64,000 bases of DNA from an uncultured Muribaculaceae bacterium (GCA_964616485.1 CAZTRB010000005.1:11592-75591); one strand, 5' to 3'; counted from the stretch's first letter, positions 614-30,788 are shown. The notes: generated by a model not told the origin, from the sequence alone. Program-made: numbers and translations.

Positions 614-749
614 TTATTCTCCTAAACTTCTCTATTATTCTCTTTAATTTAATATAATAGTATTGATAAAATTACAAAAACGATTAAGAGAATAAATATT
701 GCACTTTTTCTTTATTTTTTTATATATATTATACAACTATTTTAGATTT

Positions 750-784
750 TATAAATAAAAAAGATAGATACTTTAATCTATCTT
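750..784 (-). terminator. intrinsic terminator after 778..1974 gene
   Basis: Hairpin aagatagat-actttaa-tctatctt (761-784, includes stop codon) followed on minus strand by T-run (plus-strand ataaataaaa). Confidence 0.5.
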
Positions 785-1974: not shown

Positions 1975-2063
1975 TTTATTCCCCCTTTATGAATTTGGCA
2001 TTTATTGTATACGACTTAACACTAAAAGTCAAGATTTAGAAAACAAACAAAAATAATTAAATA

Positions 2064-2771: not shown

Positions 2772-2830
2772 AATATTTTCTCCTAACAGTAAGTTTGAAT
2801 TTTTTAGAAATAATTTCGTTTTAATTTTAT

Positions 2831-2860
2831 AAACAAAAATGAAGAACCTTTCGGTCCTTC
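2831..2860 (-). terminator. recG intrinsic terminator
   Basis: Hairpin gaagaacc-tttc-ggtccttc (2841-2860) with A-run 2831-2840 on plus strand = T-run on minus strand downstream of recG stop. Confidence 0.55.
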
Positions 2861-2998
2861 GTCAGGGGGTTTTTGGTTGAATACACTCTCACATTATTAT
2901 AACCGTAAGAGCGAAACAGCATAATGTATTATCATTATGCATATTTATAATAATATGTATTTAGATAATTGTCAATTAGTTAGTTGATTTTTCCATAA

Positions 2999-9196: not shown

Positions 9197-10142
9197 TATT
9201 TCTCCTTTTTAATCCCTTACTCATCTCTTTAATAATGTATATAGGTCTTTTCTTTATCTCTGAATATACCTTCGATAAATAGGCTCCTATTATTCCTAAT
9301 GAGAATAGTTGAACTCCTCCGACGAAGAAGATTAACCAAAATACTAATAACACACTACTTATAGAGACATCTATTATTAAGTTTACCACAATTATAACGA
9401 ATAAGACAAACGCTACGAGAGAAAATAATAGACTCATTACAAAAGGAATCATCAAAGGAACTGTTGAAAAACCAATTATTCCCTCGAAAGCATACACTAA
9501 GAGATTCCAAAAACTCCACTTAGTATTACCTGCCACTCTCTCGACATTCTTATACTCTAACCACTTAGTCTTAAATCCAACGAAAGTAAACAGACCTTTA
9601 GAATAACGATTATACTCTCTCATCGTCAAGATTGAATCGACTACTTGTCTTCTCATCAATCTAAAGTCTCTAGCTCCATCGACCATCTCTGTCTTAGAAA
9701 TTTTATTTATCAACTTATAAAATCTTCTAGCAAAGAAACTCCTAATAGGTGGTTCTCCTTTTCTAGTCGTCCTCCTACAAGCTACGACATCGTAGTCCTC
9801 CTCTTTAATAAGACGATACATCTCTTCTAAAAGACTAGGTGGATCTTGTAAATCAGCATCAAGCGTCGCTACATAATCTCCAGTCGCATGTTCTAATCCC
9901 GCTAAAACAGCACCTTCTTTACCAAAGTTTCTAGAAAGAGAAATATACTCTACTCTCTTATCTTTCTTCTTTAATTCTTTAATATATTCTAAAGTATTAT
10001 CTTTAGAACAATCATTGACAAAGACAAATTCAAAATTAACTTTCTTTAAGTTTTCTGCTATCCTAGTTACTTCTTCATAAAAGTAAGGAAGCGACTCCTC
10101 TTCATTATAACAAGGAACGACTAACGATATTTTTTCTCTCAT
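9186..10142 (-). CDS. family 2 glycosyltransferase, GtrB/CsbB-like polyprenyl-phosphate sugar synthase with C-terminal TM helices
   Basis: LVVPCYNEEESL...NDCSKDNT...DADLQDPP (DxD region) and two C-terminal TM helices, typical of bactoprenol-P glycosyltransferases. Confidence 0.85.
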   Translation of the reverse strand: MREKISLVVPCYNEEESLPYFYEEVTRIAENLKKVNFEFVFVNDCSKDNTLEYIKELKKKDKRVEYISLSRNFGKEGAVLAGLEHATGDYVATLDADLQDPPSLLEEMYRLIKEEDYDVVACRRTTRKGEPPIRSFFARRFYKLINKISKTEMVDGARDFRLMRRQVVDSILTMREYNRYSKGLFTFVGFKTKWLEYKNVERVAGNTKWSFWNLLVYAFEGIIGFSTVPLMIPFVMSLLFSLVAFVLFVIIVVNLIIDVSISSVLLVFWLIFFVGGVQLFSLGIIGAYLSKVYSEIKKRPIYIIKEMSKGLKRRNIDV

Positions 10143-10143
10143 A

Positions 10144-11592
10144 CTATTCTTTAATCCTTCTTTCTATTTTTTCAAAGATTCCCATATACCTAACATAAGC
10201 GTCTTTTTCCAAAGGAATCTCATAATACTTTTTAAGTTCTTTTAACTCTTCACTATTTATCGGGTTAAACTTATAGACTAGTTTTAAAGGGTTAGCTTTT
10301 ATCTCGATAGTATTTTGATTAGATTCTAACTGTTCTTTAATGTATTCTCCCCTAGTCTTCTCAAAATAAGATATTAACAAGAAAGAAGAGATATAATAAA
10401 TTACTAACAAGCTCGTTAATAAGACGACTCTCTTACTAACATTAAATTCTTTATTACTAACAAATATTGCTAAGGAACTAATTAAAAATAAAGTAAAGGC
10501 ATAATTATTACCAAAGTCCCACTCCTGTGATATAAGACTAAAAAGACTAACTGCAATCGAGAAGATAAATAAGACATTTATTAATCTCTTACTCTTTAAA
10601 TCTTTACTATAATAGTGAAGACTTCTAATCAATAAATAAAAATATAATAAGTAATAAAAAGCATAATACCAATTCTCTACTGCAAAGAAACCGTTATAAC
10701 GATTAATTACTAAAGTTAAAGATACTGGCGAATAGAAAGAGAAATTATAAATAAAAGAAAAATACAAGATGATATTAAATAAGACGATAAGTATTCTAGA
10801 GTAAATCCCTTTAAGTCTTTCCCCTAAATAAAAGTTAATCGGTATCGTCGACAATATTATTAATAATATATTTCTAGAAAAAGTATTTTCGATAAAATCG
10901 GGAATACTATTAAAGACATAGTTTATATCGAGAATAAAAATACTCTCTTTAAAGAAACTAAAGACGAATAATAAAGTCAAGAGATGAAAGATTACTACTA
11001 AGAGATACTTTTTATTATAATTACATATTAAGTAAAATATATTTGCTATAACAAAAGAAATAGCGATGAAGATAGACGAGGTAATAACATAACTACCGAG
11101 AAGTATCATCATGACATAATCACGATAGTTTCTCTCTTTATCTCTTATACTAAATAGACTATAGAAATATATAAAACCTAGTAATATCGGTATCGTATAA
11201 CTAAAAGCACCACTTACAGAGACGTAATTATAAGCAAACATATCGACGCTGACTAAAAGCATTAATAAAAATGTTATCACATACATAAACTTGTTCTTTA
11301 CTATTCCTAATAGAGTGTTGGTCCTAAAGACAAACATCGAAGTAACTATCGCTATTATCAGATTAAACCAAACTTTATTATAAGAGAATATATTAATAAA
11401 AAAACCACTTATTACTCTTCCGTCTAAAATAGAAGAATTTTCTAAATTATAAGCGATCCCCTCTTTACCTAAAGAAAAAAAAGCCCAATCTATTCCACCT
11501 AATGGAGATAAAAAAGCCACTATCAAAAAGAAGAAAAAGACATATGTCGTTAACTTATATTTATAATCTATCGTTTTAATTCTATCATTCAT
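10144..11592 (-). CDS. polytopic membrane protein (~12 TM), candidate GT-C-type glycosyltransferase or oligosaccharyltransferase partner of the GtrB-like enzyme
   Basis: 482 aa almost entirely hydrophobic helices with short loops, immediately upstream of and 2 nt from the GtrB-like gene; family not assignable by eye. Confidence 0.45.
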   Translation of the reverse strand: MNDRIKTIDYKYKLTTYVFFFFLIVAFLSPLGGIDWAFFSLGKEGIAYNLENSSILDGRVISGFFINIFSYNKVWFNLIIAIVTSMFVFRTNTLLGIVKNKFMYVITFLLMLLVSVDMFAYNYVSVSGAFSYTIPILLGFIYFYSLFSIRDKERNYRDYVMMILLGSYVITSSIFIAISFVIANIFYLICNYNKKYLLVVIFHLLTLLFVFSFFKESIFILDINYVFNSIPDFIENTFSRNILLIILSTIPINFYLGERLKGIYSRILIVLFNIILYFSFIYNFSFYSPVSLTLVINRYNGFFAVENWYYAFYYLLYFYLLIRSLHYYSKDLKSKRLINVLFIFSIAVSLFSLISQEWDFGNNYAFTLFLISSLAIFVSNKEFNVSKRVVLLTSLLVIYYISSFLLISYFEKTRGEYIKEQLESNQNTIEIKANPLKLVYKFNPINSEELKELKKYYEIPLEKDAYVRYMGIFEKIERRIKE

Positions 11593-11600
11593 AAAGTCTC

Positions 11601-12092
11601 CTATAACTTATCTATGTAATCCTCTATTAATTTTACCATATTTTTAGTATTACTCTCATACTTTTTAGGTTTAAAAGTCTTAGCTTTTTCTAAAGTCTTA
11701 GAAAGTTTATTAAGATCTTTAAGAGGAAGTATATATTTCTTAGAACTTAATTGTTCGATAATCTCTAATTGATGATCGTTATCATGCTCTTTAAACTTCT
11801 TTAGTCTAGGAGCAGCTATTACAACTTTATTATATTCTAATCCCTGTAAGATAGAACCTACTCCACCATGAGTAATTAATAAACTACAATCTTTAATCAT
11901 CTTAGCAAACTCTTCACGAGAAATAAAATCAAAGATTTTCATATTAGGACTCTCATACTTAGTATGACCTGCTTGGACAATTACTTCTTCTTTAATAGTT
12001 CCTTTCTTTATCTCTCTATCTATTTGCTCTAATAAACGTTTAAACTCTTTATCTTGAGTTCCAAGAGTAACTAATATCATTAGTAAATCCAC
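11601..12092 (-). CDS. Alg13-like glycosyltransferase catalytic subunit (GT28 C-terminal domain, Cps14G/EpsF-like)
   Basis: LVTLGTQDKEFKRL...LITHGGVGSILQGLEYNKVVIAAPR matches the GT28 C-terminal fold; overlaps the Alg14-like gene by 13 nt. Confidence 0.75.
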   Translation of the reverse strand: MDLLMILVTLGTQDKEFKRLLEQIDREIKKGTIKEEVIVQAGHTKYESPNMKIFDFISREEFAKMIKDCSLLITHGGVGSILQGLEYNKVVIAAPRLKKFKEHDNDHQLEIIEQLSSKKYILPLKDLNKLSKTLEKAKTFKPKKYESNTKNMVKLIEDYIDKL

Positions 12093-12550
12093 CCCCCATA
12101 AACCGCTTTAGGATAAAGTTTTAACATACTCTCCCATTGAACGATAAATAAATCGGCAAAGAGATAGATTAACCTTCCCGTAATCGTCTTACTCTTACTA
12201 TTAGCAAGCGTCTCGATATAAATAATCTTACTACCGAATATTTTACCGACACAACACATTGGTCCTGCCGTATGAGCACCAGTAGTTATGATTACTTTAG
12301 GTCTAATCTTAAAGTAAAGAAAGAGACTCTTAAAAGAATTATATATTAACTTAAAGGGATAAGTTAATAAATGAGCCTTAGTTCCATAGACTAAATACTT
12401 TACTTTTCCCGGATATTTATCTTTTAAAGTCATATTAGATTTAGTCTTTTCTGTTATTATATAGTGATCATATTTCTCAAACATCGAAGACAACTTCATC
12501 ATCTCAGATAAATGACCACCAGTAGAAGATATAAATAAAACCTTTTTCAT
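12080..12550 (-). CDS. Alg14-like glycosyltransferase accessory subunit (Cps14F/PssD-like)
   Basis: MKKVLFISSTGGHLSEM...IITTGAHTAGPMC...IIYIETLANSKSKTITGRL typical of Alg14-like proteins. Confidence 0.75.
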   Translation of the reverse strand: MKKVLFISSTGGHLSEMMKLSSMFEKYDHYIITEKTKSNMTLKDKYPGKVKYLVYGTKAHLLTYPFKLIYNSFKSLFLYFKIRPKVIITTGAHTAGPMCCVGKIFGSKIIYIETLANSKSKTITGRLIYLFADLFIVQWESMLKLYPKAVYGGWIY

Positions 12551-12557
12551 AAACCAC

Positions 12558-13772
12558 CTATTTTAGTATTTTAAACCAATCTTTCTCTATATTTTTAGCT
12601 AAGTACTTTTGAGATATTTTAAGATTCTCTTTACTTAGTTTTTCTCTATACTTATTATCTTTTAAAATAAGAACGATTTTTTCTTTTAAAAGGCTTAAGT
12701 CTCTATTAGGTATCAAAACATCACTATTATCTTCTAAGACTTCACATATTCCCTTAGCACTATCGAAACCAATAACAGGAAGTCCATAACTAGCAGCTTC
12801 GATTACGACTAAACCGAAAGACTCCGAGAATGATGTAGTTACGAAAAGAGAACTATCTAACATATACTTTTCTATCTTATCTTTAGATAAAAATCCGAGT
12901 AATTCGACATTATCATTTAAAGATAATTTCTTAATTTGTTTCTCTAAATTACTTCTTTCAGACCCATCACCGATTAGGTAAAGCTTAATATTAGGTATAT
13001 TTTCTCTAACCAAAGATAATACTTCTAAAAGGTCAGAGTGTCCTTTTTCTAGAGATAATCTTCCGACATTGATTATGTTATTTGTCTTTAATAGAGATTT
13101 TTTCTTCGGCAATTCGTCTAAGACATTGGGTATATAAAGACACTCTACATTCGTCTTATCTTTATAAAAGTCTCTGAGTTCTCTAGATACTAAGATAAAA
13201 TAAGAAAATCCTTTAATAGAAGATACTAACTTTCTAACATATTTTTTATCGTTATTATGATAGTTGTGATCGGTAACAATTTTTACAATATGTCTATTAC
13301 CATAAGTAGATACTAATCTATTATGGAAGGTCCTAGTAGTAATTACATACTTGCTATTTATTTTAATAATAGCATTAATATTTAAAAGACTTTTTTTAAA
13401 TAAGAGAACAAGAGCTATATATGCTTGTTTTAATATACCAAAGATATTCTTATTAGTTAATTCTTTTTTAAACTCTTCTCTATTAGGTTTAGAATCAATT
13501 AAATATTTTATCTTAATCTTCTTATCAAAATAAAACGCGGGTTGTTCTAGCAACTTATAAGTAGTTATAATCTCTATCTCAAACTTTTTATCTAGCATCT
13601 TACAAAGAGAAGACAAGTACTTTTCGATACCACCATATCCTAAATGAAGAGCTAATATCGTTATCTTATTTTCTTTTAGTTTTCTCTTGTTATATTTTAA
13701 AATTAAAAACACTAAAAATAAGATAATAACAAAAGACAATAATACTAATAACAGTTGCAATATATCACACAC
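12558..13772 (-). CDS. family 4 glycosyltransferase (GT-B, glycosyl transferase group 1) with N-terminal TM
   Basis: C-terminal GT-B motif NVGRLSLEKGHSDLLEV...TSFSESFGLVVIEAASYGLPVIG (E-x7-E region). Confidence 0.8.
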   Translation of the reverse strand: MCDILQLLLVLLSFVIILFLVFLILKYNKRKLKENKITILALHLGYGGIEKYLSSLCKMLDKKFEIEIITTYKLLEQPAFYFDKKIKIKYLIDSKPNREEFKKELTNKNIFGILKQAYIALVLLFKKSLLNINAIIKINSKYVITTRTFHNRLVSTYGNRHIVKIVTDHNYHNNDKKYVRKLVSSIKGFSYFILVSRELRDFYKDKTNVECLYIPNVLDELPKKKSLLKTNNIINVGRLSLEKGHSDLLEVLSLVRENIPNIKLYLIGDGSERSNLEKQIKKLSLNDNVELLGFLSKDKIEKYMLDSSLFVTTSFSESFGLVVIEAASYGLPVIGFDSAKGICEVLEDNSDVLIPNRDLSLLKEKIVLILKDNKYREKLSKENLKISQKYLAKNIEKDWFKILK

Positions 13773-13813: not shown

Positions 13814-13847
13814 AGCAAGAAAAAAGATATCTTTTTCAAGATATCTT
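13814..13847 (-). terminator. intrinsic terminator after the giant pilin-like gene
   Basis: Two copies of the self-complementary decamer aagatatctt (13824-13833, 13838-13847) form a 10-bp stem with loop tttc; T-run on minus strand (plus agcaagaaaa); stem includes stop codon. Confidence 0.55.
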
Positions 13848-16800
13848 ATCCCCAATTTTCACAACCACAAGCTGCTGTTCTACAAGAATTATTTCCTCCT
13901 ACACAAGTACTATAAGTGTATAGACAATTATTCCATCCACATGCACTATGTTGACAATAATAGTATCCGGCACATCCACAGCAATCATTATAACAGGTTG
14001 CAGCTTCCTCACCAGAAACACAACATGTTGTCGAAGTTTTATACCATGTTTGGCCACCCGAACTAGGTTTGCTACTTGCACACTTAGTTCCGCACCCATA
14101 ACCTCCTGTGTTTTGGTAACATTCATAGATATTTCCTTTAGTTTTACAATATGTTCCGCAACAAGAGTAACTAGTACATCTTTTATTTCCAGTACATCCG
14201 CATCCGGCAGTATAACAAGAATTATATCCTCCAACACAAACGGACGGGTTACCTGTTAAACAAGAATTCCATCCACAATTAGCATGTTGACAACTCTTAT
14301 TGGTAACACAACTCGATGTTATAGAACAAGTTCCTGTATTACCCGCTCCATCTGTAACCGTGTATGTCTTTGTACCTTTAACATTTGAATCATTATATGT
14401 AGCTGGAGATACTCCACTTGCATTATCAGAAGTTGTAACTTTTACGGTTATTCCATTAGCTCCATTCGCTGTTTTAACAGCAGTACAAGTAGGATTAACT
14501 GTATCTCTTTTTATCGTAAATACATTAGATGCAGCAGATGCATTACCTGCATTGTCAATTGATCTTACATAGAAATTCCAATTCCCATCCCAGTTTATCG
14601 TCCATGGATTTGACATTGCTGTCCAATTTGCAGCATCATGACTATACTGATAACTAGCAATTCCAGAACCAGTTCCGTCCGAAGATGATGCAGTTATTAC
14701 AACATTAGATTTTGTCCAAGTGCCTGAAGTATAAGAACCTAGATTGATCGTTGGTTTTGAAGGTTTTGTTGCATCTCTCTTTATTGTTACGACATTTGAA
14801 TTATCACTTATGTTACCAGATTTATCTATAGCCCTTACATAAACGTTCGTAGATATATCTGAACTAATTGTCCATGGATTCGACATCGTCGTCCATCCCG
14901 ACGTCCCATTAGTACTATATTCATATCTATCTAAGTTAGTATCCGATGAACTCGCTGTTATGACAATATTTTGATTTGACCATGTATTAGATGTATATGT
15001 AGTACCATCTGCTTTTTTCAAGGTTAAAGTTGGTTTCGACGGTTTCGTCGCATCTCTTTTAACATTAAAGACGTTTGACACATCACTTATATTACCAGCA
15101 CCATCAGTAGACCTTACATAGTAATTACTTTCGACATCTGTACTAATTGTCCATGGATTTGCCATATTTGTCCATCCTGAAGTTCCATTAACACTATATT
15201 CATATTTACTTATTCCTGAAATATTATCAGTTGAACTTGCCGTTACGACTACATTGCCAGAGGTCCATGTCCCTGAAGTATAAGAACCTAAATTGATCGT
15301 CGGTTTCGATGGTTTAGTAGCATCCCTTTTGATAACTACGGCATTAGATACATCACTAACATTTCCTGAGGAATCGATTGCTCTTACATAGATGTTTGTC
15401 GAAGTATCCCAGTTAATCGTCCATGGATTTGTCATAGCCATCCATCCCGATGTTCCGGTCGTACTATATTGATATCCAGCTAAGTTATCATCAGTTGAAC
15501 TTGCTGTAATGATTATATTTTGATTTGACCATGTATTAGATGTATAAGTAGAATTGTCTGCTTTCTTCATTGTCAATGTTGGTTTTGATGGTTTCGTCGC
15601 ATCTCTTCTAACAATAAATGGATTTGAATTATCACTTACGTTACCAGCACCATCAGTCGATCTGACATAGTAAGTTTTATCGGTATCGAAGTTTATCGTC
15701 CATGGATTTGACATCGTCGTCCATCCTGAAGTTCCATTGTTACTATATTCGTATTTGCTTATTCCCGAAATATTATCAGTTGAACTTGCCGTTACGACGA
15801 CATTACCAGAAGTCCATGTACCAGAAGTATACGAACCTAGATTAATCGTCGGCTTCGATGGTTTAGTACCATCTATTTTTACCGTTTGGTTGTTCGGACA
15901 AGTAACACAGTTTCCTGCTCTATCACAAACCTCGCCCGGTCCAGCCGTCGTCGTATTTATATCACTAGTATAAGGTTTAGTAATTGTCGTATTTACACAA
16001 CCACTACCACTATCACTACAAGTACCAATTATATTTACAGTCGTCTTACTCCATGCAGAACTTCCACCACTACTTACACAAGTTGGTTTCGTCGTATCGA
16101 TCGTATCGACGACTACCGCTTTATTAGTAACATGTCCAGCTTGGTCCTTAACCCACACATAATATGTACCATTATCAGAAGCTATATTTGGAACACCAAT
16201 TCCAAAACTAGTTCTTGCCGATATAGCGGTAAATGTCGGTTGTGTCGTCGAACTCTTATTTATACCGTAACCGATTATTCCTGAATTAGTATCTGTTCCG
16301 GTAAATACTATCGTTCCGTTAAGTCCGTCTTGACCAGTATCGATTATCGTCGAGTACGCTACATCCCAACTTACTGAAGTACCAGAACCCGTCAAGTAAA
16401 CGTGTCCGAAAGTCGAGAACGTTCCCGAACTACCCGCTTTTTGAATATAGATATATTCTGCCCAATCTCCAGTTCCAGCTTGTGGAGTGATCCAGTAGAC
16501 GCTTGAACCTGTACCGGTAGAATTAGAAGCTCTTTGAATAGTATACCCAACTGGTATCTTTGCAATTATTCTATGAGCATATACAGCATTAGCTCTCGAA
16601 GTTACAGTTTGAACATAACCTCCTAATCCAGGAGAACTGACACCATTTGTCGTTATTCTCATAACGTATGAACCATATGGGTTAGATTGAGCTACTCTAG
16701 CGTGAGTAACAGTACCATTTCCACTATTATTATATACGCTAAAGTTATTTGTCCCAGAAGCAAACGTCGGATCTTTGAATAACGGAGTCCCTGATATTGC

Positions 16801-18897
16801 TTCTGATATAACCGGAGCATTTTTATCTATTCTTACGATTTGGTCAGCCTGGCAAGTAGTACAGTTTCCTGCATTATCACAAACTTGTCCAGGTGATTCA
16901 TTAGTCGAATTTATATTAGAAGTATATGTTTTCGTTACCGTCGAATTCACACAACCACTATCAGCGTCATTACACGTTCCAGTAATCGTGACATTCGTCG
17001 TTTTCCATGTAGCGCTTCCACCACTATTTATACATGTTGGTGGTTCGTTATCGGCAGTTATCGTTTGGTGATACCATCCGCCACTATTTGGCGATTGAGT
17101 TATGACGTTACCAGCATTATCAACTAGTCTCGTATAAACGGTATATACTCCTCCAGGTAAACTAACAACGTGTTTATTTTGTCCAGTAATAGATGTAATG
17201 CCACCTACAGCAACACCGTTTCTTTCCATCTTGACTTGGAACTCTTTAATACCACTCAAATTATCAGCAACCGTAATTGTCAACGTTTGATTAGCACTAT
17301 ATACTCCCGTTAATAAGCTATAACTTGCAGTAGGAGCCGTCTTGTCGATTCTAGAAATCGTTACTGATGAAGGATCAGATGATAAACCGACAACGTTTCT
17401 CGTACGAACTTGAGCATTCGTTACATTTGACGAATAAATATTATAATTTGTCGATTGCCAAGAAGCGCCATCATTAAACGAATACTCAGTCGTTCTAACT
17501 AATCCAGCTCTTGGAATCAAGTTAACTTTTACATTGTTCTTAGTCCAGATACCTGGAGAAGCAGCGACTAAATCAATTCTAGAAACATTGTAAGATACAC
17601 CACTTAGTGCTCCTAAAACTAATCTAAAGTTAGAGTATTGTCCAACCGAAGGTAAAATAAACTCTATGTCTCTAGTACCTTGAATCATTAATGCTGATAC
17701 TGAGAGTTCATTCCCATTTTGATCTTTAAAGTAGACTCTACCCGTCGTCGTCGTTGGAATATTAGTATTTAAAGTCACAGTTAATTTCTTAATACCATTA
17801 AATGTCGGATACGAAGCAGTACCAAACGTTATAACTGGGTTTGTCGTAGTCGTCGTTAGTATTGTACCCGCTAAATTTAACCCCGAAAGAGTATATTCAT
17901 ATTGGTTAGGGAACAATTGATATGCATACTCAACATCAAATTCTGGTTTTGGAACACCCACTCTTACGTCGATTGAACAAATCCCCTCATTACCCGCTTC
18001 GTCTTTAACATAACCTACGACTGTCGTAAGTCCCATATCTAATTTAAGACTATCTTTTTTATTATAATCAATATTCTTTATACTAGTACCAAGTCCATAA
18101 GTTAAAAGTCCACTATCAGCATCATCTTTAGTATCGAACTTAACATAAACGTCTCCCGAATACCACCCTAACGCTTCTAAGTTTCCGCCATCTCTAATAA
18201 GTGTACAAGTTGGAGGAGTCTTATCGACATATACTTTTACCGGACAACTAGTTTGATTTCCACTCTTATCAACTATATTAATAAAACTCTCAGTAGTAGT
18301 CGTACCAAATGTCTTAGAGAATCTAGCTAAACGACAACCACTAGTTTGGTCACTACAACCAACACTAATTGTTCTATTTTCCTTAGTCCATGTAGTAGAT
18401 TCACCTATGACACTACCACATACCGGATTATCATTATCAGATTCATACTTAGAACAAGCCGAACCTTCAGTAGAATAATTTTCACAATACAAACACGCTC
18501 TATATTCGTAGTCACCACTAACTTTGCTTACCTCAACATAACTAAGTAAACTATTACAAAATCCATCTGTTTCCGGATCTTTTAATTCATCAGAGTAACC
18601 TTTTTCAATAACATCACTCAAATAGACAATAGATCTATCTCCATCGCCTGGTAAATTACAAGTGTAATCATTATTAGCAATACAATCAACAACCATGTTA
18701 TTCGTAGCTGTTTGCATATTCTTTTCATAAGCTAAATAAGTATTATCCTTACTACTTCCAATATAATTAGAAATAGCCGGAACTGTAATGATTGCCAATA
18801 TAGCAATTATCACGATAACGGCGATTACTTCTATTAAAGTAAACCCTTTCTTTTTCTTGGCTTTTTCCAAAATTTTACTAACAGTTTTCTTTCGCAT
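13846..18897 (-). CDS. giant (1683 aa) modular type IV pilin-like / pseudopilin-like surface protein: class III prepilin signal, Cys-containing modules, 5 tandem Ig-like repeats, Cys-rich C-terminal module
   Basis: MRKKTVSKILEKAKKKKG then FTLIEVIAVIVIIAILAIITVPA (prepilin peptidase site G/F, Glu at +5, hydrophobic alpha1 helix); AAGGAG RBS 8 nt upstream of ATG 18895-18897; promoter TTGACT-17-TAAAAT at 18932-18960 lies inside the ORF-track N-terminal extension, so start at 18897 preferred. Confidence 0.8.
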   Translation of the reverse strand: MRKKTVSKILEKAKKKKGFTLIEVIAVIVIIAILAIITVPAISNYIGSSKDNTYLAYEKNMQTATNNMVVDCIANNDYTCNLPGDGDRSIVYLSDVIEKGYSDELKDPETDGFCNSLLSYVEVSKVSGDYEYRACLYCENYSTEGSACSKYESDNDNPVCGSVIGESTTWTKENRTISVGCSDQTSGCRLARFSKTFGTTTTESFINIVDKSGNQTSCPVKVYVDKTPPTCTLIRDGGNLEALGWYSGDVYVKFDTKDDADSGLLTYGLGTSIKNIDYNKKDSLKLDMGLTTVVGYVKDEAGNEGICSIDVRVGVPKPEFDVEYAYQLFPNQYEYTLSGLNLAGTILTTTTTNPVITFGTASYPTFNGIKKLTVTLNTNIPTTTTGRVYFKDQNGNELSVSALMIQGTRDIEFILPSVGQYSNFRLVLGALSGVSYNVSRIDLVAASPGIWTKNNVKVNLIPRAGLVRTTEYSFNDGASWQSTNYNIYSSNVTNAQVRTRNVVGLSSDPSSVTISRIDKTAPTASYSLLTGVYSANQTLTITVADNLSGIKEFQVKMERNGVAVGGITSITGQNKHVVSLPGGVYTVYTRLVDNAGNVITQSPNSGGWYHQTITADNEPPTCINSGGSATWKTTNVTITGTCNDADSGCVNSTVTKTYTSNINSTNESPGQVCDNAGNCTTCQADQIVRIDKNAPVISEAISGTPLFKDPTFASGTNNFSVYNNSGNGTVTHARVAQSNPYGSYVMRITTNGVSSPGLGGYVQTVTSRANAVYAHRIIAKIPVGYTIQRASNSTGTGSSVYWITPQAGTGDWAEYIYIQKAGSSGTFSTFGHVYLTGSGTSVSWDVAYSTIIDTGQDGLNGTIVFTGTDTNSGIIGYGINKSSTTQPTFTAISARTSFGIGVPNIASDNGTYYVWVKDQAGHVTNKAVVVDTIDTTKPTCVSSGGSSAWSKTTVNIIGTCSDSGSGCVNTTITKPYTSDINTTTAGPGEVCDRAGNCVTCPNNQTVKIDGTKPSKPTINLGSYTSGTWTSGNVVVTASSTDNISGISKYEYSNNGTSGWTTMSNPWTINFDTDKTYYVRSTDGAGNVSDNSNPFIVRRDATKPSKPTLTMKKADNSTYTSNTWSNQNIIITASSTDDNLAGYQYSTTGTSGWMAMTNPWTINWDTSTNIYVRAIDSSGNVSDVSNAVVIKRDATKPSKPTINLGSYTSGTWTSGNVVVTASSTDNISGISKYEYSVNGTSGWTNMANPWTISTDVESNYYVRSTDGAGNISDVSNVFNVKRDATKPSKPTLTLKKADGTTYTSNTWSNQNIVITASSSDTNLDRYEYSTNGTSGWTTMSNPWTISSDISTNVYVRAIDKSGNISDNSNVVTIKRDATKPSKPTINLGSYTSGTWTKSNVVITASSSDGTGSGIASYQYSHDAANWTAMSNPWTINWDGNWNFYVRSIDNAGNASAASNVFTIKRDTVNPTCTAVKTANGANGITVKVTTSDNASGVSPATYNDSNVKGTKTYTVTDGAGNTGTCSITSSCVTNKSCQHANCGWNSCLTGNPSVCVGGYNSCYTAGCGCTGNKRCTSYSCCGTYCKTKGNIYECYQNTGGYGCGTKCASSKPSSGGQTWYKTSTTCCVSGEEAATCYNDCCGCAGYYYCQHSACGWNNCLYTYSTCVGGNNSCRTAACGCENWG
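13849..14328 (-). other. Cys-rich C-terminal module (~160 aa, >30 Cys) with internal duplication
   Basis: CQHANCGWNSCLTGNPSVCVGGYNSCYTAGCGC ... CQHSACGWNNCLYTYSTCVGGNNSCRTAACGC; CC and CGC clusters. Confidence 0.7.
14506..15873 (-). repeat. five in-frame tandem coding repeats (~273 bp, 90-92 aa each) alternating two subtypes
   Basis: Protein units D[AG]TKPSKPT...TASS[ST]D...GTSGW...NPWTI...YVR[AS][IT]D.[AS]GN[VI]SD..N....[IV][KR]R repeated 5 times; DNA-level recurrence of gtccatggatttgacat near 14594, 14876, 15420, 15705. Confidence 0.85.
15862..16089 (-). repeat. 6-Cys module copy 2 (PTCVSSGGSSAWSKTTVNIIGTCSDSGSGCVNTTITKPYTSDINTTTAGPGEVCDRAGNCVTC)
   Basis: Same Cys spacing as copy 1; sits directly before the tandem Ig-like repeats. 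Confidence 0.7.
16813..17040 (-). repeat. 6-Cys module copy 1 (PTCINSGGSATWKTTNVTITGTCNDADSGCVNSTVTKTYTSNINSTNESPGQVCDNAGNCTTC)
   Basis: ~75-aa module repeated again at 15862-16089 with recognisable DNA similarity. Confidence 0.7.
18826..18897 (-). other. class III (prepilin-type) signal peptide and N-terminal pilin helix
   Basis: Basic 18-aa leader ending in Gly followed by FTLIE and 20 hydrophobic residues. Confidence 0.8.
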
Positions 18898-18931
18898 AAT
18901 AAAGCTCCTTGTATTATCTTTTATATATAAC

Positions 18932-18960
18932 ATTTTAATATCTTTATACATAATAGTCAA
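18932..18960 (-). promoter_or_regulatory. candidate promoter of giant pilin-like gene (TTGACT-17-TAAAAT)
   Basis: Minus-strand ttgact (plus agtcaa 18955-18960), 17-nt spacer, taaaat (plus atttta 18932-18937); about 30 nt upstream of RBS/ATG. Confidence 0.4.
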
Positions 18961-19043: not shown

Positions 19044-19072
19044 TAGACACTATATACAATATATTATATAAT
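19044..19072 (+). promoter_or_regulatory. candidate divergent promoter of dockerin-GH73 operon (TAGACA-17-TATAAT)
   Basis: tagaca 19044-19049, 17-nt spacer, tataat 19067-19072, then GGAGGTG RBS before ATG 19106. Confidence 0.4.
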
Positions 19073-19105
19073 TATATTACTAATAATGGCATGGAGGTGT
19101 AACAA

Positions 19106-21121
19106 ATGAAGAGATTTTTATTCGTGATTCTTTTGATATTGCTTCTTTTTAATAGTGGAACAGCACATGCAGAAATTATTAAGACTGGTCGGGCTATAGC
19201 CGATGTTGGGCTTAGAATTAGAGCTACTCCCTCTACTAGCGGAACACAATTAGGAACGATACCCTATGGAACGATAGTTAGAATCATCGGTGAAGCGAAT
19301 GGTTCGGGATGTAACGATCCTTGGTTTCAAGTAATTTACTCTACTGGTAATAGTAATATAAACGGTTATTCTTGTTCTACTTATATAACGGAAATTACGG
19401 AGTATGATACTGAAGAGAATACGCCTACAACACCACCAGTAAATAGCGAGGACTTCGAAGCCTACTTAACTTCACAAGGATTCCCAGAAAGCTACAAAGT
19501 CAAACTAAGAATTTTACACGAACAACATCCTAATTGGATATTTGTCGGTATAAAAGTAAGAGAGTCTTGGCAAACGTCTTTAAATCTTCAAGGCGAAGAT
19601 GGAAGAAGTACATTAAATGTTAATGCGGCAAGAAAGGCTTTGGGGCAAGAGGGATATTTATCGACTGCAGCGGGACACTATAACTATGAGACTGACACTT
19701 TTATTCCTAAAGATGGTACTTATTGGTTTCAAGCTAACTCAGATGCTATTGGATATTACCTTGACCCAAGAAACTTCATGGACGAGAAAAATGTTTTCAT
19801 GTTCGAAAGTCTTTTACAAAACGATGCTATTCATACTAAATCAGTAGTCGACGGGATCTTGTCGAGTGACTTCATGAAACAATATTCTAATCATTTCATG
19901 AAAGGTGCAAGAGACTACAACGTTTCTGCTACGCACTTAGCATCACTATCTAGACAAGAAGTAGGAATTACTAACGGTAACATTGTTACTAACGGAAAAG
20001 CCGGAGTATTATCAGACGGAGTTAACTATAACGGTTACTATAACTTTTTTAATATCGGAGCATCATCATCGGGAGATCCGAAGTTAAAATCGTTACAAAG
20101 CGCTAAAGCTCGCGGCTGGAATTCACCTGAGAAATCAATCGTTGGTGGAGCGGCTTTTATATCTAGTGGTTATATTAATGCCGGACAATACACGGCTTAT
20201 CTTCAAAAGTTTAACGTCGATCCTAATGCTACTAAAGGAATATGGCATCAGTATATGACTAACATAGCGGCATTATCTTCGCCGGCAATTACGACATATA
20301 ACTCATATAATAATCTCGGTTTCATAAACCATTCATTTATATTCTCGATTCCAATATTTACTAATATGCCAGAAAGCACTTCGTTACCTCCCTTAGGTAA
20401 CCCAAATAACTGGCTAAAAGAAATAAAGATAAATGGTATCGCTTTATCTAGTTTCTACGGTGGTACCACTAATTACACCATCGATATTCCTTACGAGGAA
20501 GAGATTACAGTAGAGGCTAAAAAAGTAAATAGTAACGCTACTGTATCAGGAACTGGAACAAAAGCCTTAACGGAAGACAAAACCACTTTAACGATTAAAG
20601 TCACTGCTCAAAACGGAAGCGTTAAAAACTATACGGTAACAGTTAATCGTGGGATAAAAGACGATCCTAACTTAGAGATAGATCTTCTATTAAAAGATGT
20701 CTTAACTGATAGCAAATACAAATACGATAGTAAAAATCTTTGGGGAATAACTCTAGGAACTAGCGTTAAGAGTCTTACTAGTAAAATAAAAGGAAAATAT
20801 AAAACAGTAAGTGTAAATATAAAAAATAAAGACGGCAATACTAAAACAGACGGTGTCATAGTTACAGGAGATAAAGTAACGATAACGACTAAACAAGAAT
20901 CTACTACTATCGAAGTAATAATCTTTGGTGATACTAATGGAGACGGATACATCTCGGCAATCGACATCTTAAGCGCTCAAAAACATATCCTTGGATATAC
21001 TACTCTTTTAGGAACTAGTTTCAAAGCGGCAGACATAAATAAAGACGGTGTCATATCAGCTTATGACTTACTACAATTTCAAAAACACGTCTTAGGTTAT
21101 ACTAATATAAGCCAATCATAG
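19106..21121 (+). CDS. secreted peptidoglycan hydrolase: signal peptide, SH3b, GH73 N-acetylglucosaminidase domain, cadherin-like beta-sandwich domain, C-terminal type-I dockerin
   Basis: Signal peptide MKRFLFVILLILLLFNSGTAHA; SH3b GRAIADVGLRIRATPSTSGTQLGTIPYGTIVRII; glucosaminidase-like core aa ~230-400; cadherin-like NNWLKEIKINGIALS...TIKVTAQNGSVKNYTVTVNR; dockerin FGDTNGDGYISAIDILSAQKHILGYT...AADINKDGVISAYDLLQFQKHVLGYT. Confidence 0.8.
   Translation: MKRFLFVILLILLLFNSGTAHAEIIKTGRAIADVGLRIRATPSTSGTQLGTIPYGTIVRIIGEANGSGCNDPWFQVIYSTGNSNINGYSCSTYITEITEYDTEENTPTTPPVNSEDFEAYLTSQGFPESYKVKLRILHEQHPNWIFVGIKVRESWQTSLNLQGEDGRSTLNVNAARKALGQEGYLSTAAGHYNYETDTFIPKDGTYWFQANSDAIGYYLDPRNFMDEKNVFMFESLLQNDAIHTKSVVDGILSSDFMKQYSNHFMKGARDYNVSATHLASLSRQEVGITNGNIVTNGKAGVLSDGVNYNGYYNFFNIGASSSGDPKLKSLQSAKARGWNSPEKSIVGGAAFISSGYINAGQYTAYLQKFNVDPNATKGIWHQYMTNIAALSSPAITTYNSYNNLGFINHSFIFSIPIFTNMPESTSLPPLGNPNNWLKEIKINGIALSSFYGGTTNYTIDIPYEEEITVEAKKVNSNATVSGTGTKALTEDKTTLTIKVTAQNGSVKNYTVTVNRGIKDDPNLEIDLLLKDVLTDSKYKYDSKNLWGITLGTSVKSLTSKIKGKYKTVSVNIKNKDGNTKTDGVIVTGDKVTITTKQESTTIEVIIFGDTNGDGYISAIDILSAQKHILGYTTLLGTSFKAADINKDGVISAYDLLQFQKHVLGYTNISQS
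20924..21103 (+). other. type-I dockerin module (two Ca-binding F-hand repeats)
   Basis: Duplicated D.N.DG.I.A.D...(K)H.LG segments matching dockerin consensus GDVNGDGKVNSTD...LKRYILK. Confidence 0.8.
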
Positions 21122-21130
21122 GAGGACTTT

Positions 21131-22546
21131 ATGAAAAAAATCTTTAAACCATTTACAATGGTTTTCCTTTTTACAGTGATGTTTTTGTTTAATAATAACG
21201 TCTTGGCAGCTAACTTAAATGTCTCGATAACCTCGAGTACTAGTAGAGCGGTAGTTGGTAACAATATTACTTATACGGTTAGAGTGTCTTCTAATGCTAA
21301 ATTTGGTAATATTCATTATAGATTAGAATATGACACTTCTAAGTTAACTCATGTAAGTGGAACACTAAATAATTTTGATTTAAATGTTATCGATAAATAT
21401 TCTGCTACTTACACTTTTACTTTTAGAGCAAAAGCAAGTGGTAATGCTAGAGTAACGTTCGTAATCAACGAAGCCTTAGAATTAAATAACAATTCTTTTA
21501 ATTATAATACTAGAACCAATAAAGATATAACGATCATAACTCAACAACAATTAGAAGCTAGCTATAGTAAAAACAACTACCTATCATCTTTAAAAATAGA
21601 TAATTTTGAAATGACACCGGCTTTTAATAAAGATACTTTAGAATACTCGATAGAATTAGAAAACGATGTTAAATCAATAAATATTAGCGGTACTAAAGCA
21701 GATTCAACAGCATCAGTCGAAGGTTTGGGTGCACATGAATTAATAGAAGGACCAAATAAAATAAATATAAAAGTTACTGCCCAAAACGGTGCCTCTAGAA
21801 CATATACGATAAATGCAACGGTAAAAGAATTAAATCCCATTATCGTAACTGTCGACGGCAAAGAATATAATGTCGTTAGAAAAAAAGACCTAATAAAAAA
21901 ACCTAATAGCAAATACGAAGAGACGATTATACAAATAAATGAAGAAGATGTCCCAGCTTTCATAAACGAGACGACTAAAGTAACATTAATCGGGCTTAGA
22001 GATGAAGAGGACAACATTTCTTTATTTAGTGTTAAAAATGATACGTATATTCCTTACCAAGAATTCGCTTTTAGTAGTATAATATTTACGGAAGAAAATT
22101 TAGACGATCTTCCTAAAGGTTATACTAAAACTAAATTAAAACTCGAAGAAGTAGAAATAGACGCTTATCAAGATAACTCTAACTTAAATTTCTACCTAAT
22201 AAAAGGAGTGAACATTGAAACGGGAATAACTTCCCTATATCAATATGATAGTAAAGAAAACACTCTTCAAATATATAATGATTCATTAGCTAAACAAAAT
22301 AAGGAATTAACTAATAAGAATAATATTTATCTTTATACTATAATTGGTCTAATAGCACTCATAGCTATATCTTCCGGAACGATATTAGTAAAGACTTTAA
22401 AAAATGAAAAACCTAAAATAAAAAAAGAAGAGAAGACCGACAAAAAAGTCAAAGAAAAAGTAGAGGAACCGAAAGAACCTATCATAGAAGAAGAGAGTCT
22501 AACAAAACAAATAAAGAAAATGAAAAAAAATAAAAAACAATCTTAA
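21131..22546 (+). CDS. type-I membrane protein with signal peptide, cohesin-like N-terminal module, cadherin-like domain, C-terminal TM helix and Lys/Glu-rich cytoplasmic tail
   Basis: Signal MKKIFKPFTMVFLFTVMFLFNNNVLA; NLNVSITSSTSRAVVGNNITYTVRVSSNAKFGNIHYRLEYDTSKLTHVSG resembles cohesin (..YDp.vLe.vsv..G); cadherin-like YLSSLKIDNFEMTPAFNKDTLEYS...INIKVTAQNGASRTYTINATV; TM IYLYTIIGLIALIAISSGTILV; 10-nt gap to upstream dockerin gene. Confidence 0.55.
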   Translation: MKKIFKPFTMVFLFTVMFLFNNNVLAANLNVSITSSTSRAVVGNNITYTVRVSSNAKFGNIHYRLEYDTSKLTHVSGTLNNFDLNVIDKYSATYTFTFRAKASGNARVTFVINEALELNNNSFNYNTRTNKDITIITQQQLEASYSKNNYLSSLKIDNFEMTPAFNKDTLEYSIELENDVKSINISGTKADSTASVEGLGAHELIEGPNKINIKVTAQNGASRTYTINATVKELNPIIVTVDGKEYNVVRKKDLIKKPNSKYEETIIQINEEDVPAFINETTKVTLIGLRDEEDNISLFSVKNDTYIPYQEFAFSSIIFTEENLDDLPKGYTKTKLKLEEVEIDAYQDNSNLNFYLIKGVNIETGITSLYQYDSKENTLQIYNDSLAKQNKELTNKNNIYLYTIIGLIALIAISSGTILVKTLKNEKPKIKKEEKTDKKVKEKVEEPKEPIIEEESLTKQIKKMKKNKKQS

Positions 22547-22561
22547 TATACTGGAGGAATT

Positions 22562-24667
22562 ATGAAAAAGAAAAAGATCAAATACCAAAATATATTCACA
22601 ATACTTTGTATCTTAAGCAGCTTATATCTAATCCAATCTATCTACTTATTTTCACAAATAGAAACAGTTATTAGATACTCTGTAATTGGTATTTTAGTTC
22701 TTTTCGACTTCTTTATATTAATTAAGATGTTTTTCTTAAAGACTAAAAAAACTATTATATATATTATAGTCTTAGTCTTTTTTAGTGGAATATATATATT
22801 CTTAGGATACAATTTAAATAGAATATACTCTTATTTTACTAACTTAAATAAGACGATTACTTATTCGACTAGTTTAGTTACCTTAAAAAGTACTAAAGAT
22901 GTCGATCTAATAACACTTAAGAATGCTAATATAGGTCTTATCGATGATCCGACTTCTGAAGATGGACACATCTTAGCACAAGAGATAATAAAGAAAGAGA
23001 GTTTATCTAAAAACAATAATATTATCTATAGGCATTCATATACTGAACTTATATTAGATTTATATGATAAAGACTTAGACTATATTTTTCTTCCTAGTTC
23101 TTATGTCGATATCTTTAGTACGATCGAAGGTCTTGAAGATATAGAAGATAAAATTAAGACTATTCTAACGACAGAGATGGAAAAGACTAAAGAAGAGGCA
23201 CAACTATTAGGAGATCCTAAGAATATAGATGAACCATTCACGATGTTATTAATAGGTATTGATTCAACGGCTGATGGTATTCAAAATGCCGACTCATTTA
23301 ATGGAGATTCTCTTATGGTACTTACTTTTAATCCTAAGACGATGACTGCTACGATGTTAAGTATACCTAGAGATACGTATGTTCCAATAGCATGCTTTCC
23401 AAATAAAATAGAAAATAAGATAACTCATTCTGCTTCTCGTGGTACAAGTTGTGTTATAAATACTATTCAAAACTTATTGGATATAAAAATAGACTATTAT
23501 ATGAAGATTAACTTTACTGGTCTAGTCGAACTAGTCGATGCCGTCGGTGGAGTCGAAGTCGATGTTCCTTATAGTTTTTGTGAACAAAATAGTAAGAGAA
23601 AATTCGGTAATAGTACTATCTATGTAAAAGAAGGTTTAAGGACACTTAATGGTGAAGAGGCCTTAGCATTATCTAGAAATAGAAAGAATAATTATGAATA
23701 TTGTTCTAAAGAATGGACTAAGGGAAATAGAAGTGACTTTGTAAGAGCAGAGAACCAACAAAAAGTAGTTCAAGGAATATTAAATAAAGTAAAAGGTTAT
23801 ACTTCTATTAACAAAATAGAAGAGTTATTAAAAATAGTCTCTAAAAACTTAGATACTAATATGAGTGAGAAGACGATTTTCTCATTCTATAATATTGCAA
23901 AGGATGTCATGATATCATCGTCTAATTCTGATATACTATCTATTCAAAGATTAGAGATAGTCGGATGGGGACAAACGATATACGATGAGACATCTAAGTT
24001 ACAGTTGTGGAATTATGTTCCAAATAAGAGAAGTACCGAAGATGTAAAAGAAGCTATTAAAATAAATTTAGGACTGAAAAAACATGAGTTAATCAAGACT
24101 TTCACTTATTCTTGGAAAGAAGAATATACTCAAAAGATTCCAGGTAAAGGGCCTTATAGTATATATACTACTTATGACTTGCTAAAAGACTTTACTAACA
24201 TGAATATAACGGATGTCGAGCTATGGGCTGAAAAAAACGACATTACTTTAGTCATAGAAGAAGTAGAAAAGGTCGGTTACAAAAATGGTACAGTCGTTAA
24301 TCAAGAGTATCCAGTTAATAAGAGATTAGATTTAATACCCGATAGAACATTAAAAATAGAAGTAGTCAAGAATAAAGATACTAAAATAGACTGTTTAAAA
24401 GACGAGGAAAACATTATTTGTCTAATACCTGACTTTATCGGTAAAACTAAGAAAGACGTAGCTCTTTGGGGAAATAAGTTCTCTAATCTAGTAGATGTTA
24501 AATATGTAGAAGTGGAGTCTGAAGAAGAAGAGAATACGATAATAGATCAAACGATTAAAGGTATTACGATAAAAGAATTACTTGAGAATAAAGAGAGTAT
24601 CACTTTTACTATCGTTAAGAAAAAAGAAATAATACCACCTATCGAAGAAGAAATGGAAGAAGAATAA
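22562..24667 (+). CDS. LytR-CpsA-Psr (LCP) family cell-wall glycopolymer transferase with extended C-terminal region (701 aa)
   Basis: N-terminal TM helices; LCP core LLIGIDSTADG...GDSLMVLTFNPKTMTATMLSIPRDTYVPIAC...HSASRG...YYMKINFTGLVELVDAVGGVEVDVPYSF; ~280-aa C-terminal extension. Confidence 0.8.
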   Translation: MKKKKIKYQNIFTILCILSSLYLIQSIYLFSQIETVIRYSVIGILVLFDFFILIKMFFLKTKKTIIYIIVLVFFSGIYIFLGYNLNRIYSYFTNLNKTITYSTSLVTLKSTKDVDLITLKNANIGLIDDPTSEDGHILAQEIIKKESLSKNNNIIYRHSYTELILDLYDKDLDYIFLPSSYVDIFSTIEGLEDIEDKIKTILTTEMEKTKEEAQLLGDPKNIDEPFTMLLIGIDSTADGIQNADSFNGDSLMVLTFNPKTMTATMLSIPRDTYVPIACFPNKIENKITHSASRGTSCVINTIQNLLDIKIDYYMKINFTGLVELVDAVGGVEVDVPYSFCEQNSKRKFGNSTIYVKEGLRTLNGEEALALSRNRKNNYEYCSKEWTKGNRSDFVRAENQQKVVQGILNKVKGYTSINKIEELLKIVSKNLDTNMSEKTIFSFYNIAKDVMISSSNSDILSIQRLEIVGWGQTIYDETSKLQLWNYVPNKRSTEDVKEAIKINLGLKKHELIKTFTYSWKEEYTQKIPGKGPYSIYTTYDLLKDFTNMNITDVELWAEKNDITLVIEEVEKVGYKNGTVVNQEYPVNKRLDLIPDRTLKIEVVKNKDTKIDCLKDEENIICLIPDFIGKTKKDVALWGNKFSNLVDVKYVEVESEEEENTIIDQTIKGITIKELLENKESITFTIVKKKEIIPPIEEEMEEE

Positions 24668-24729: not shown

Positions 24730-24758
24730 TTGACAATTAATATACTATATAGTATAAT
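24730..24758 (+). promoter_or_regulatory. consensus sigma-A promoter for rnj (TTGACA-17-TATAAT)
   Basis: ttgaca 24730-24735, 17-nt spacer, tataat 24753-24758, then AGGAG RBS. Confidence 0.6.
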
Positions 24759-30436: not shown

Positions 30437-30788
30437 AATAATATTAATAAGCCATGTTCTGTTCCTATTTCTAGGCGACAAACATTTATCTACCGAATTA
30501 CTTCAGTCCTTAACTCCGTTTGATTCCTTCGTTAAAGTTCCTCTACCGAAATTTGAGTTTCTCGCTTGCGGGGTTTATCACGTTCCACTTCCATCGTTTC
30601 CAACTTGTTCGTCACTATGACACTTTATAGCTAATCTAGTCATATCCGAAGACTTAGACTATTTCGCCGCCGTTAGTTACCTACCTAGAGTTATTTTTTC
30701 CTCTAGCACAAACACTACAGACATCTCAGCCTGTGCGAGCATGGACTTTCCTCTATATTATTAAAAATACAGCGTTTGTCTTAATATT
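30437..30788 (-). ncRNA. rnpB: RNase P RNA, type B (Firmicutes)
   Basis: Reverse complement reads AGAGGAAAGTCCATGCTCGCACAGGCTGAGATG...GTGGAACG(T)GATAAACCCC...GCAAGCGAGAAACTCAAATTTCGGTAGAGGAAC...ACAGAACATGGCTTA, near-identical in conserved P4/P15/P18 regions to Bacillus subtilis RNase P RNA; ORF-free, GC-elevated 350-nt gap; gpsB-rnpB synteny as in B. subtilis. Confidence 0.92.

Follow-up and report, generated by a model that had tools for sequence, protein, structure and literature searches.

A putative cohesin-dockerin pair that may leash a GH73 peptidoglycan hydrolase to the membrane in uncultured gut Bacilli

We analysed a stretch of 64,000 nucleotides deposited under the name of an uncultured Muribaculaceae bacterium (GCA_964616485.1 CAZTRB010000005.1:11592-75591; hereafter the window, with positions counted from its first letter). 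Our subject is a pair of adjoining plus-strand open reading frames (ORFs), ORF1 and ORF2. ORF1 encodes a secreted glycoside hydrolase family 73 (GH73) enzyme that ends in a dockerin, and ORF2 encodes a membrane protein whose N-terminal module is, by sequence and structure comparison, a divergent cohesin homologue. The two genes stay side by side across species, one dockerin to one cohesin, and the two modules diverge together. On these computational grounds we consider it likely that the proteins assemble through a cohesin-dockerin tether. With less assurance, we lean towards a full model in which this one-to-one tether holds the hydrolase to a housekeeping role on the cell's own wall. The initial annotation had placed at 19106-22546 an SH3b-GH73 enzyme with a C-terminal dockerin and, 10 nt downstream, a protein with a signal peptide, a cohesin-like module and a C-terminal transmembrane (TM) segment, both proteins carrying a cadherin-like domain. 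Both ORFs are present at these coordinates. The SH3b-GH73 architecture, the two cadherin-like domains and the topology of ORF2 were all recovered; the gap measures 9 nt. The features of the pair are as follows.

19106-21121, plus strand: ORF1, 671 amino acids; secreted protein with SH3b, GH73, cadherin-like domain, X segment and dockerin
19208-19387, plus strand: SH3_3 (bacterial SH3) domain, ORF1 residues 35-94 (Pfam 44.4 bits, cutoff 27)
19682-20332, plus strand: GH73 N-acetylglucosaminidase-like domain, ORF1 residues ~193-409
19958-19960, plus strand: codon of the predicted catalytic Glu285 in the GH73 domain
20420-20650, plus strand: cadherin-like beta-sandwich (PF12733), ORF1 residues 439-515 (Pfam 24.3 bits, cutoff 24.2)
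20663-20905, plus strand: beta-rich X segment of ~80 residues preceding the dockerin, ORF1 residues 520-600
20906-21118, plus strand: dockerin, ORF1 residues 601-671; two repeats, each a Ca loop and a helix
21131-22546, plus strand: ORF2, 471 amino acids; signal peptide, cohesin, cadherin-like domain, MID, TM helix and Lys-rich tail
21209-21559, plus strand: divergent cohesin module of ~115 residues, ORF2 residues 27-143
21581-21820, plus strand: cadherin-like beta-sandwich (PF12733), ORF2 residues 151-230 (36.3 bits; in 44/44 orthologues)
21842-22273, plus strand: MID, a conserved beta-rich domain, ORF2 residues 238-381
22325-22390, plus strand: C-terminal TM helix, ORF2 residues 399-420 (Kyte-Doolittle 2.16)
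22391-22543, plus strand: Lys-rich cytoplasmic tail of ORF2, 51 residues (19 Lys/Arg versus 11 Asp/Glu)

The dockerin of ORF1 has the canonical form with two repeats. Dockerin_1 (PF00404) matches ORF1 at 47 bits against a cutoff of 22.9 (E 2.9e-12), with residues 608-663 covering profile positions 2-57 of 57, and EF-hand_5 reaches 26.0 bits (cutoff 25.9). We defined a dockerin repeat as an EF-hand-like Ca loop, with ligands at positions 1, 3, 5, 9 and 12, followed by a helix. Two such repeats of 22 residues lie at 609-630 and 643-664, and the repeat sequences quoted in the initial annotation map to residues 607-632 and 641-666. The Asp at position 1 is present in 75/75 orthologues in the first repeat and 72/75 in the second, and the Asp at position 12 in 75/75 and 74/75; position 3 is Asn, Ser or Asp, and position 5 is Asp or Asn. 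A six-frame regular-expression search of the window found no dockerin Ca loops other than the two of ORF1. The closest sequence matches in the PDB are type-I dockerins (2ccl, 6kg9, 1ohz, 2vn6). The call of a dockerin thus stands, and its earlier designation as type I is backed by PF00404 and the best PDB matches rather than by a phylogeny.

The two repeats are related by a two-fold symmetry that extends to putative contact positions, the feature on which dual binding is based. Between repeats, positions 10, 11, 17 and 18 are identical in 62, 57, 75 and 73 of 75 species, respectively. The putative contact positions 10 and 11 differ among species yet mostly agree between both repeats of a given dockerin; in ORF1 they are A618 and I619 in the first repeat and A652 and Y653 in the second. 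Moreover, the strongest covariation inside the dockerin links symmetry-related positions of repeats 1 and 2. Such internal symmetry reads as a signature of binding in two orientations, and a dual mode is probable here.

The catalytic part of ORF1 is divergent. Pfam Glucosaminidase (PF01832) reaches only 14.8 bits, below its cutoff of 30.2; the GH73 call was made from the NCBIfam SagB profile and from solved staphylococcal glucosaminidases. The SagB profile (NF052642) scores 78 bits (E 5.6e-22), which is far from its equivalog cutoff of 425 bits. Solved GH73 enzymes that match ORF1 comprise 6fxp and 6u0o (SagB), 6fxo (Atl), 4pi7 (AtlE) and 5wqw, with E-values from 6e-17 to 2e-9, and the staphylococcal SagB, Atl and AtlE structures lie at E 6e-17 to 1e-10; E 2e-16 to 4e-10 was also obtained for solved staphylococcal GH73 enzymes. 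In the alignment, Glu285 falls on the catalytic Glu of LLETG (motif 'E-[TV]-G'). It is invariant in 75/75 orthologues, and Tyr383 of the YxT[ND] motif is kept in 72/75. By homology, ORF1 is a real but divergent GH73 enzyme. Its accessory domains are less constant: SH3_3 is detectable in part of the orthologues only, the cadherin-like domain is absent from a few, and the X segment, which has no Pfam family, is detectable with phmmer in about half. One locus (L074, 2801-5929) encodes a 1043-residue form of ORF1 with a long additional N-terminal region, and in another (L061, 2530-4526) a frameshift divides the gene into a GH73 ORF and a cadherin-like plus dockerin ORF.

ORF1 appears to lack a means of its own to stay at the cell surface. 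Its sole hydrophobic segment is a Sec-type signal peptide (residues 1-22, cleavage read by inspection between AHA and E), no LPXTG-like motif occurs in ORF1 or ORF2, and no wall-binding repeats are detectable in ORF1 with Pfam. A cohesin held in the membrane would therefore be a plausible way to retain and position the enzyme. ORF2 begins with a signal peptide and has one hydrophobic helix near its C-terminus, at residues 399-420; in the AlphaFold model the helix spans 384-424.

The N-terminal module of ORF2 was compared with cohesins by profile, sequence and structure. Pfam Cohesin (PF00963) matches 17/44 full-length ORF2 orthologues at E < 0.01 (best 9e-8). Ten out of ten orthologues tested, 34-60% identical to the window module, exceed its cutoff (25.4-31.6 bits versus 24.1), and in these the match covers residues ~32-150 and profile positions 1-126 of 139, which is exactly the N-terminal module. 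A profile of the ORF2 family matches the cellulosomal type-II cohesin structures 3l8q (E 6e-4) and 2y3n (E 3e-3). We also searched residues 26-145 of ORF2 (120 residues) as a single sequence with phmmer against 1.84 billion representatives, which returned the module's own family and large proteins matched over several stretches (P0259, P0276, P0292, P0295, P0327 and P0355; E 2.3e-10 to 4.1e-5). Among the large proteins checked, six out of seven carry 3-10 Pfam cohesins, and one (P0276) is a classical scaffoldin with a family 3 carbohydrate-binding module (CBM3), ten cohesins and a dockerin. The module was assessed as a nine-stranded beta-sandwich, and when a model of it alone was used, cohesins were the top structural matches. 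Searches with the entire protein were uninformative: single-sequence phmmer with full-length ORF2 returned nothing meaningful from the PDB, and a fold search with the full four-domain model gave unspecific multi-Ig matches only.

Other results qualify the cohesin identity. PF00963 has no match at E <= 0.1 in the ORF2 of the window itself. The fold match is not exclusive, for similar scores are reached by a CLIPPER domain, by macroglobulin (MG) domains and by TRAP-beta; in Foldseek the best E-values belong to TRAP-beta, with MG and CARDB domains close behind. The module is also short, at ~115 residues versus ~140 in a typical cohesin, and the Pfam matches of the orthologues end near profile position 110-126 of 139. 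Because the fold match is shared and the module falls below ~140 residues, we describe it as a shortened, divergent cohesin homologue. The cohesin-like module of the initial annotation is thus borne out by orthologues above the PF00963 cutoff, by matches to scaffoldins and by structural rank, and not by Pfam on the window protein. That annotation had named a failure of the module to match a cohesin profile or structure as grounds for dropping the idea; the matches found leave it standing, as does the profile check of the dockerin with PF00404. Where the two proteins are named in existing annotation, they are 'cadherin-like beta sandwich domain-containing protein', and the cohesin has therefore gone unrecognized.

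We next considered the pair across species. A scan that took one genome per species identified relatives in 221 species-level genomes; at 50% identity, 166 clusters were counted. We examined the best 80 of the 221 loci. In 80/80, the ORF that directly precedes the cohesin gene on its strand encodes a dockerin, and it carries GH73 wherever it is complete; a frameshift interrupts one of these ORFs and contig ends truncate three, one of which keeps the dockerin only. Using family hidden Markov models, we found exactly one dockerin ORF and one cohesin ORF in each of 81 regions (~1 Mb), with no further dockerins or cohesins in these regions even at E <= 10.

The divergence of the two modules was compared with the mirror-tree approach. 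Dockerin and cohesin distances correlate at r 0.45, with a partial r of 0.32 after controlling for three other domains, and 0/500 permutations reached the value. The dockerin correlates at r 0.39 with GH73 on its own polypeptide, 0.23 with the cadherin-like domain of ORF2 and 0.15 with MID. The cohesin module, in turn, follows the domains of ORF1 better than its own neighbours in ORF2. MID follows GH73 (partial r 0.39) and the cadherin-like domain, not the dockerin. This domain is confidently modelled by AlphaFold (predicted local distance difference test score 81-94) and holds many invariant residues (for example R250, K251, P275, Y309, G365, Y370 and Q380), and no relatives were found by sequence in Pfam or the PDB. 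Together, synteny, one-to-one stoichiometry and co-evolution support the pairing of dockerin and cohesin at the level of sequence. In five loci with similar module sequences (L009, L013, L044, L056, L075), dockerin position 14 is Gly, not Leu, in both repeats, and in the same loci the cohesin lacks the conserved Gly59, with 'LGxW' replaced by 'M[VS][SA]L' or 'LIAL'. We regard these paired changes as candidates for compensation at the interface, but they may stem from one evolutionary event.

We propose the following mechanism. Sec would export ORF1 as a soluble GH73 N-acetylglucosaminidase without a wall or membrane anchor of its own. The C-terminal dockerin would fold round two Ca2+ ions and plug, in a Ca-dependent manner, into the one divergent cohesin of ORF2; its internal symmetry probably permits two orientations of binding. 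This cohesin would sit at the membrane-distal tip of ORF2, which would rise from the outer side of the membrane with two further beta domains as its stalk and one C-terminal TM helix as its anchor. The glucosaminidase, leashed at a fixed length beside the membrane, would act on the cell's own and probably thin peptidoglycan in growth or separation, and would not be lost to the gut lumen. The pair would be co-transcribed with a glycopolymer ligase. The initial annotation had spoken of surface display; given the TM-helix anchor and the recurring wall-synthesis neighbours, 'membrane leash' may be the better description.

The pair recurs beside genes of wall synthesis. Three plus-strand genes, ORF1, ORF2 and ORF3, are closely packed, with the following signals and third gene.

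19044-19072, plus strand: promoter-like site TAGACA-17-TATAAT upstream of ORF1, 11/12 match
19094-19100, plus strand: Shine-Dalgarno GGAGGTG of ORF1, by sequence reading
21120-21125, plus strand: Shine-Dalgarno AGGAGG of ORF2, overlapping the TAG stop of ORF1
22562-24667, plus strand: ORF3, 701 amino acids; LCP (LytR-CpsA-Psr) glycopolymer-to-peptidoglycan ligase

The next strong promoter-like site (12/12) lies beyond ORF3 at 24730-24758, and no terminator-like sites were found between ORF1 and ORF3. ORF3 is probably a third gene of the operon, co-transcribed with the pair. No Rfam regulatory RNA was found near the operon. ORF1 and ORF2 share a reading frame and are separated by TAG and three codons only, so that a single stop read-through would join the dockerin to the signal peptide of ORF2. 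ORF3 has three TM segments towards its N-terminus and ends in PASTA repeats (31 bits); we encountered no discussion of such an LCP and PASTA fusion. Among the 80 loci, an LCP gene is directly downstream on the same strand in ~26 and divergently upstream in ~6. MurG follows the pair in at least two loci, and other upstream neighbours are an O-antigen-ligase/GT4 gene or LtaS with YfhO and a GtrB-like gene.

The related carriers belong to uncultured Bacilli of gut and rumen and have small genomes (record titles include Mycoplasmatota, Mollicutes, Erysipelotrichaceae and 'Clostridium sp. CAG:762'), and one closed carrier chromosome is 1.31 Mb. In the orders RF39, RFN20 and ML615J-28, thin walls and the loss of most penicillin-binding proteins and lyt/cwl hydrolases are predicted, and two of the three are predicted to lack sortases (PMC10868615). 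The same study predicts incomplete peptidoglycan precursor pathways in these related orders and a possible need for scavenged muropeptides. For the organism of the window this context is suggestive only.

These carriers bring up the strongest alternative, in which the same assembly forms and the GH73 enzyme faces outward, scavenging from or attacking neighbouring or dead bacteria as a one-enzyme 'lyticome' that would supply the reduced-genome cell with muropeptides or amino sugars, or kill competitors. A small genome and a possible need for scavenged muropeptides would fit such a life, and we infer that ORF1 and ORF2, fully extended with seven folded modules, could span a thin wall. There is also precedent, as PMC6487960 proposes attack or defence for dockerin-bearing putative lysozymes of the rumen and PMC6403190 discusses the 'lyticome' idea. 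Set against this, the pair occurs in one copy, with strict conservation of its core-chromosome setting next to the cell's envelope-synthesis genes LCP, MurG and LtaS/YfhO; its nearest characterized catalytic relatives are housekeeping autolysins, and the neighbourhoods sampled showed neither an immunity gene nor a toxin partner or uptake system. We consider an outward-facing enzyme unlikely.

A second alternative accepts the linkage of the genes and denies the contact: the dockerin would not be bound by the N-terminal module of ORF2 and would, as a Ca-binding module, serve another ligand, such as a wall glycopolymer or a cohesin elsewhere, and the ORF2 module would have a different partner, or the proteins would meet through their cadherin-like domains. 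The PF12733 domains of ORF1 and ORF2 do resemble each other (E 1e-7 to 1e-13). Residue covariation between dockerin and cohesin, measured as mutual information, is weak, just modestly above phylogeny-matched controls, as this alternative would have it; the covarying pairs are L622/L656 with F58/G59, I619/Y653 with L116 and S623 with N120. We treat this signal as suggestive and do not use it to claim contacts. However, one dockerin and one cohesin always adjoin in 81/81 regions, the dockerin tracks the cohesin and not the cadherin-like domain or MID of ORF2, and four loci (L034, L054, L072, L078) lack the cadherin-like domain in ORF1 yet keep dockerin and cohesin. A linked pair that does not bind in this way seems to us quite improbable. 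That the module is a generic Ig-like or beta-sandwich spacer beside the dockerin by coincidental synteny would suit the silence of Pfam on the window protein, the BatD/DUF11-like matches in 7/44 orthologues and the Foldseek ranking, and is largely refuted by the family-level matches and the conserved pairing, which leave it only a very slight chance.

The window has a low GC content (~28-39%) and a core-chromosome-like character. The operon lies between an envelope-glycan cluster (GT4, Alg13/Alg14-like and GT2 genes) and genes for RNase J, RNase Y and RecA, and no tRNA genes were found within the 64 kb.

9186-13772, minus strand: envelope-glycan cluster; GT2, a 482-residue protein without a Pfam match, a split Alg13-like (GT28 C-terminal)/Alg14 pair and GT4
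13846-18960, minus strand: 1704-residue pilin-like protein, divergent from ORF1
30444-30787, minus strand: bacterial RNase P class B RNA (296 bits)

The N-terminus of the 1704-residue protein bears a prepilin-type methylation motif (ComGC/GspG-like) and its C-terminus is rich in Cys; it also contains six OmpL47-type barrel repeats and Big_7 domains. This would make it a giant surface protein of pilin-like type, and an unusual one among type-IV pilins.

No phage or mobile-element context of the pair was seen in the neighbourhoods examined. A tblastn search against phage records gave two full-length matches, both on human faecal virome contigs labelled 'UNVERIFIED Bacteriophage sp.'.

MT836697.1 (L082), 6050-9470: GH73-dockerin and cohesin pair
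MT839502.1 (L083), 578-4229: GH73-dockerin and cohesin pair

The larger contig, L082, also carries LtaS-like, YfhO, GtrB-like GT2, ClpC and RadA genes, whereas genes for phage structural proteins are absent from it. We therefore regard both contigs as bacterial fragments and rejected an endolysin or prophage origin of the pair. The cohesin protein of L082 lacks the MID domain.

We compared the pair with characterized systems. Cohesins and dockerins outside cellulosomes are known, and many of them are reportedly without a known partner. In Clostridium perfringens, both modules are said to sit on secreted catalytic enzymes and to form soluble complexes. Unlike the non-cellulosomal cohesin-dockerin pairs of these glycoside hydrolases (NagJ GH84 and NanJ GH33 cohesins; PDB 2w1n, 2vo8, 2o4e), the cohesin here is on a non-catalytic, TM-anchored protein, the enzyme is directed at peptidoglycan, and the dockerin is nearer to cellulosomal type-I dockerins by sequence. 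Classical anchoring scaffoldins rely on SLH domains or sortase for attachment. Where a cellulosome has a scaffoldin of two or more cohesins, dockerin-bearing enzymes for plant polysaccharides and a carbohydrate-binding module or an SLH/sortase anchor, the pair has one cohesin, one dockerin, no carbohydrate-binding module, SLH domain or LPXTG motif, and an enzyme for peptidoglycan. The archaeal non-cellulosomal cohesin of Archaeoglobus fulgidus (PDB 2xdh) occurs in an unrelated protein context with no link to a wall hydrolase.

A close arrangement is that of the minimal cellulosome of ClcC and ClcD in C. lentocellum, a single-cohesin protein and a single-dockerin enzyme from adjoining genes for which 1:1 pairing has been shown (PMC13487519). 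The canonical dockerin of duplicated Ca loop and helix is also shared. However, ClcC, with its CBM3, is directed at cellulose and pairs with a GH5 enzyme, whereas ORF1 and ORF2 have no carbohydrate-binding module, a GH73 enzyme and a C-terminal TM anchor. Dockerin-bearing putative lysozymes and cell-wall hydrolases of rumen metagenomes and Ruminococcus cellulosomes, read as weapons in PMC6487960 and discussed in PMC6403190, likewise fuse a dockerin to a peptidoglycan-cleaving module. These are described there as add-ons to multi-cohesin cellulosomes, and the main text of the two papers makes no mention of an adjoining dedicated membrane cohesin, a conserved 1:1 operon or GH73. Our full-text literature searches returned no dockerin-GH73 enzyme with a dedicated TM-anchored cohesin, and no cohesin-dockerin systems in these Bacilli.

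Placing the action of peptidoglycan hydrolases is a central problem of the cell wall, for which the known solutions are wall-binding repeats, intrinsic TM anchors and partners such as FtsEX or SpdC. A conserved, compact cohesin-dockerin leash, if true, would add a mechanistically different form of hydrolase control. It would also give a physiological role to non-cellulosomal cohesin-dockerin pairs, which are mostly without an assigned one, in a large uncultured gut lineage, and would do so with a pair that is small and orthogonal to cellulosomal pairs.

For function, a parallel is SagB-SpdC of Staphylococcus aureus (PDB 6u0o), in which a membrane GH73 glucosaminidase is positioned by a partner membrane protein (bioRxiv 10.1101/2020.05.21.109470). 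SagB is the closest characterized catalytic relative of ORF1 (6fxp and 6u0o, E ~1e-16), and both systems follow the logic of a glucosaminidase held at the membrane by a partner. Whereas SagB itself carries an N-terminal TM anchor and its partner SpdC resembles CAAX proteases and crosses the membrane eight times (bioRxiv 10.1101/2020.05.21.109470), ORF1 would be soluble after cleavage of its signal peptide, ORF2 is single-pass with an unrelated fold, and the coupling would be of cohesin to dockerin. The likeness is one of functional analogy, not of membership. By this analogy, we tentatively extend the leash to a molecular ruler, an idea that we regard as speculative and rather doubtful: the fixed stalk of the membrane cohesin would let glycan strands be cut only at a given distance from the membrane, in coordination with LCP and MurG, and would be the main control of wall hydrolysis in thin-walled gut Bacilli with reduced genomes, which would have lost most classical autolysins and, in some orders, sortases. 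In either form, the plug and socket of the cellulosome appear to serve here to hold a wall-cutting enzyme at the membrane of the cell that makes it, by analogy with SpdC and SagB.

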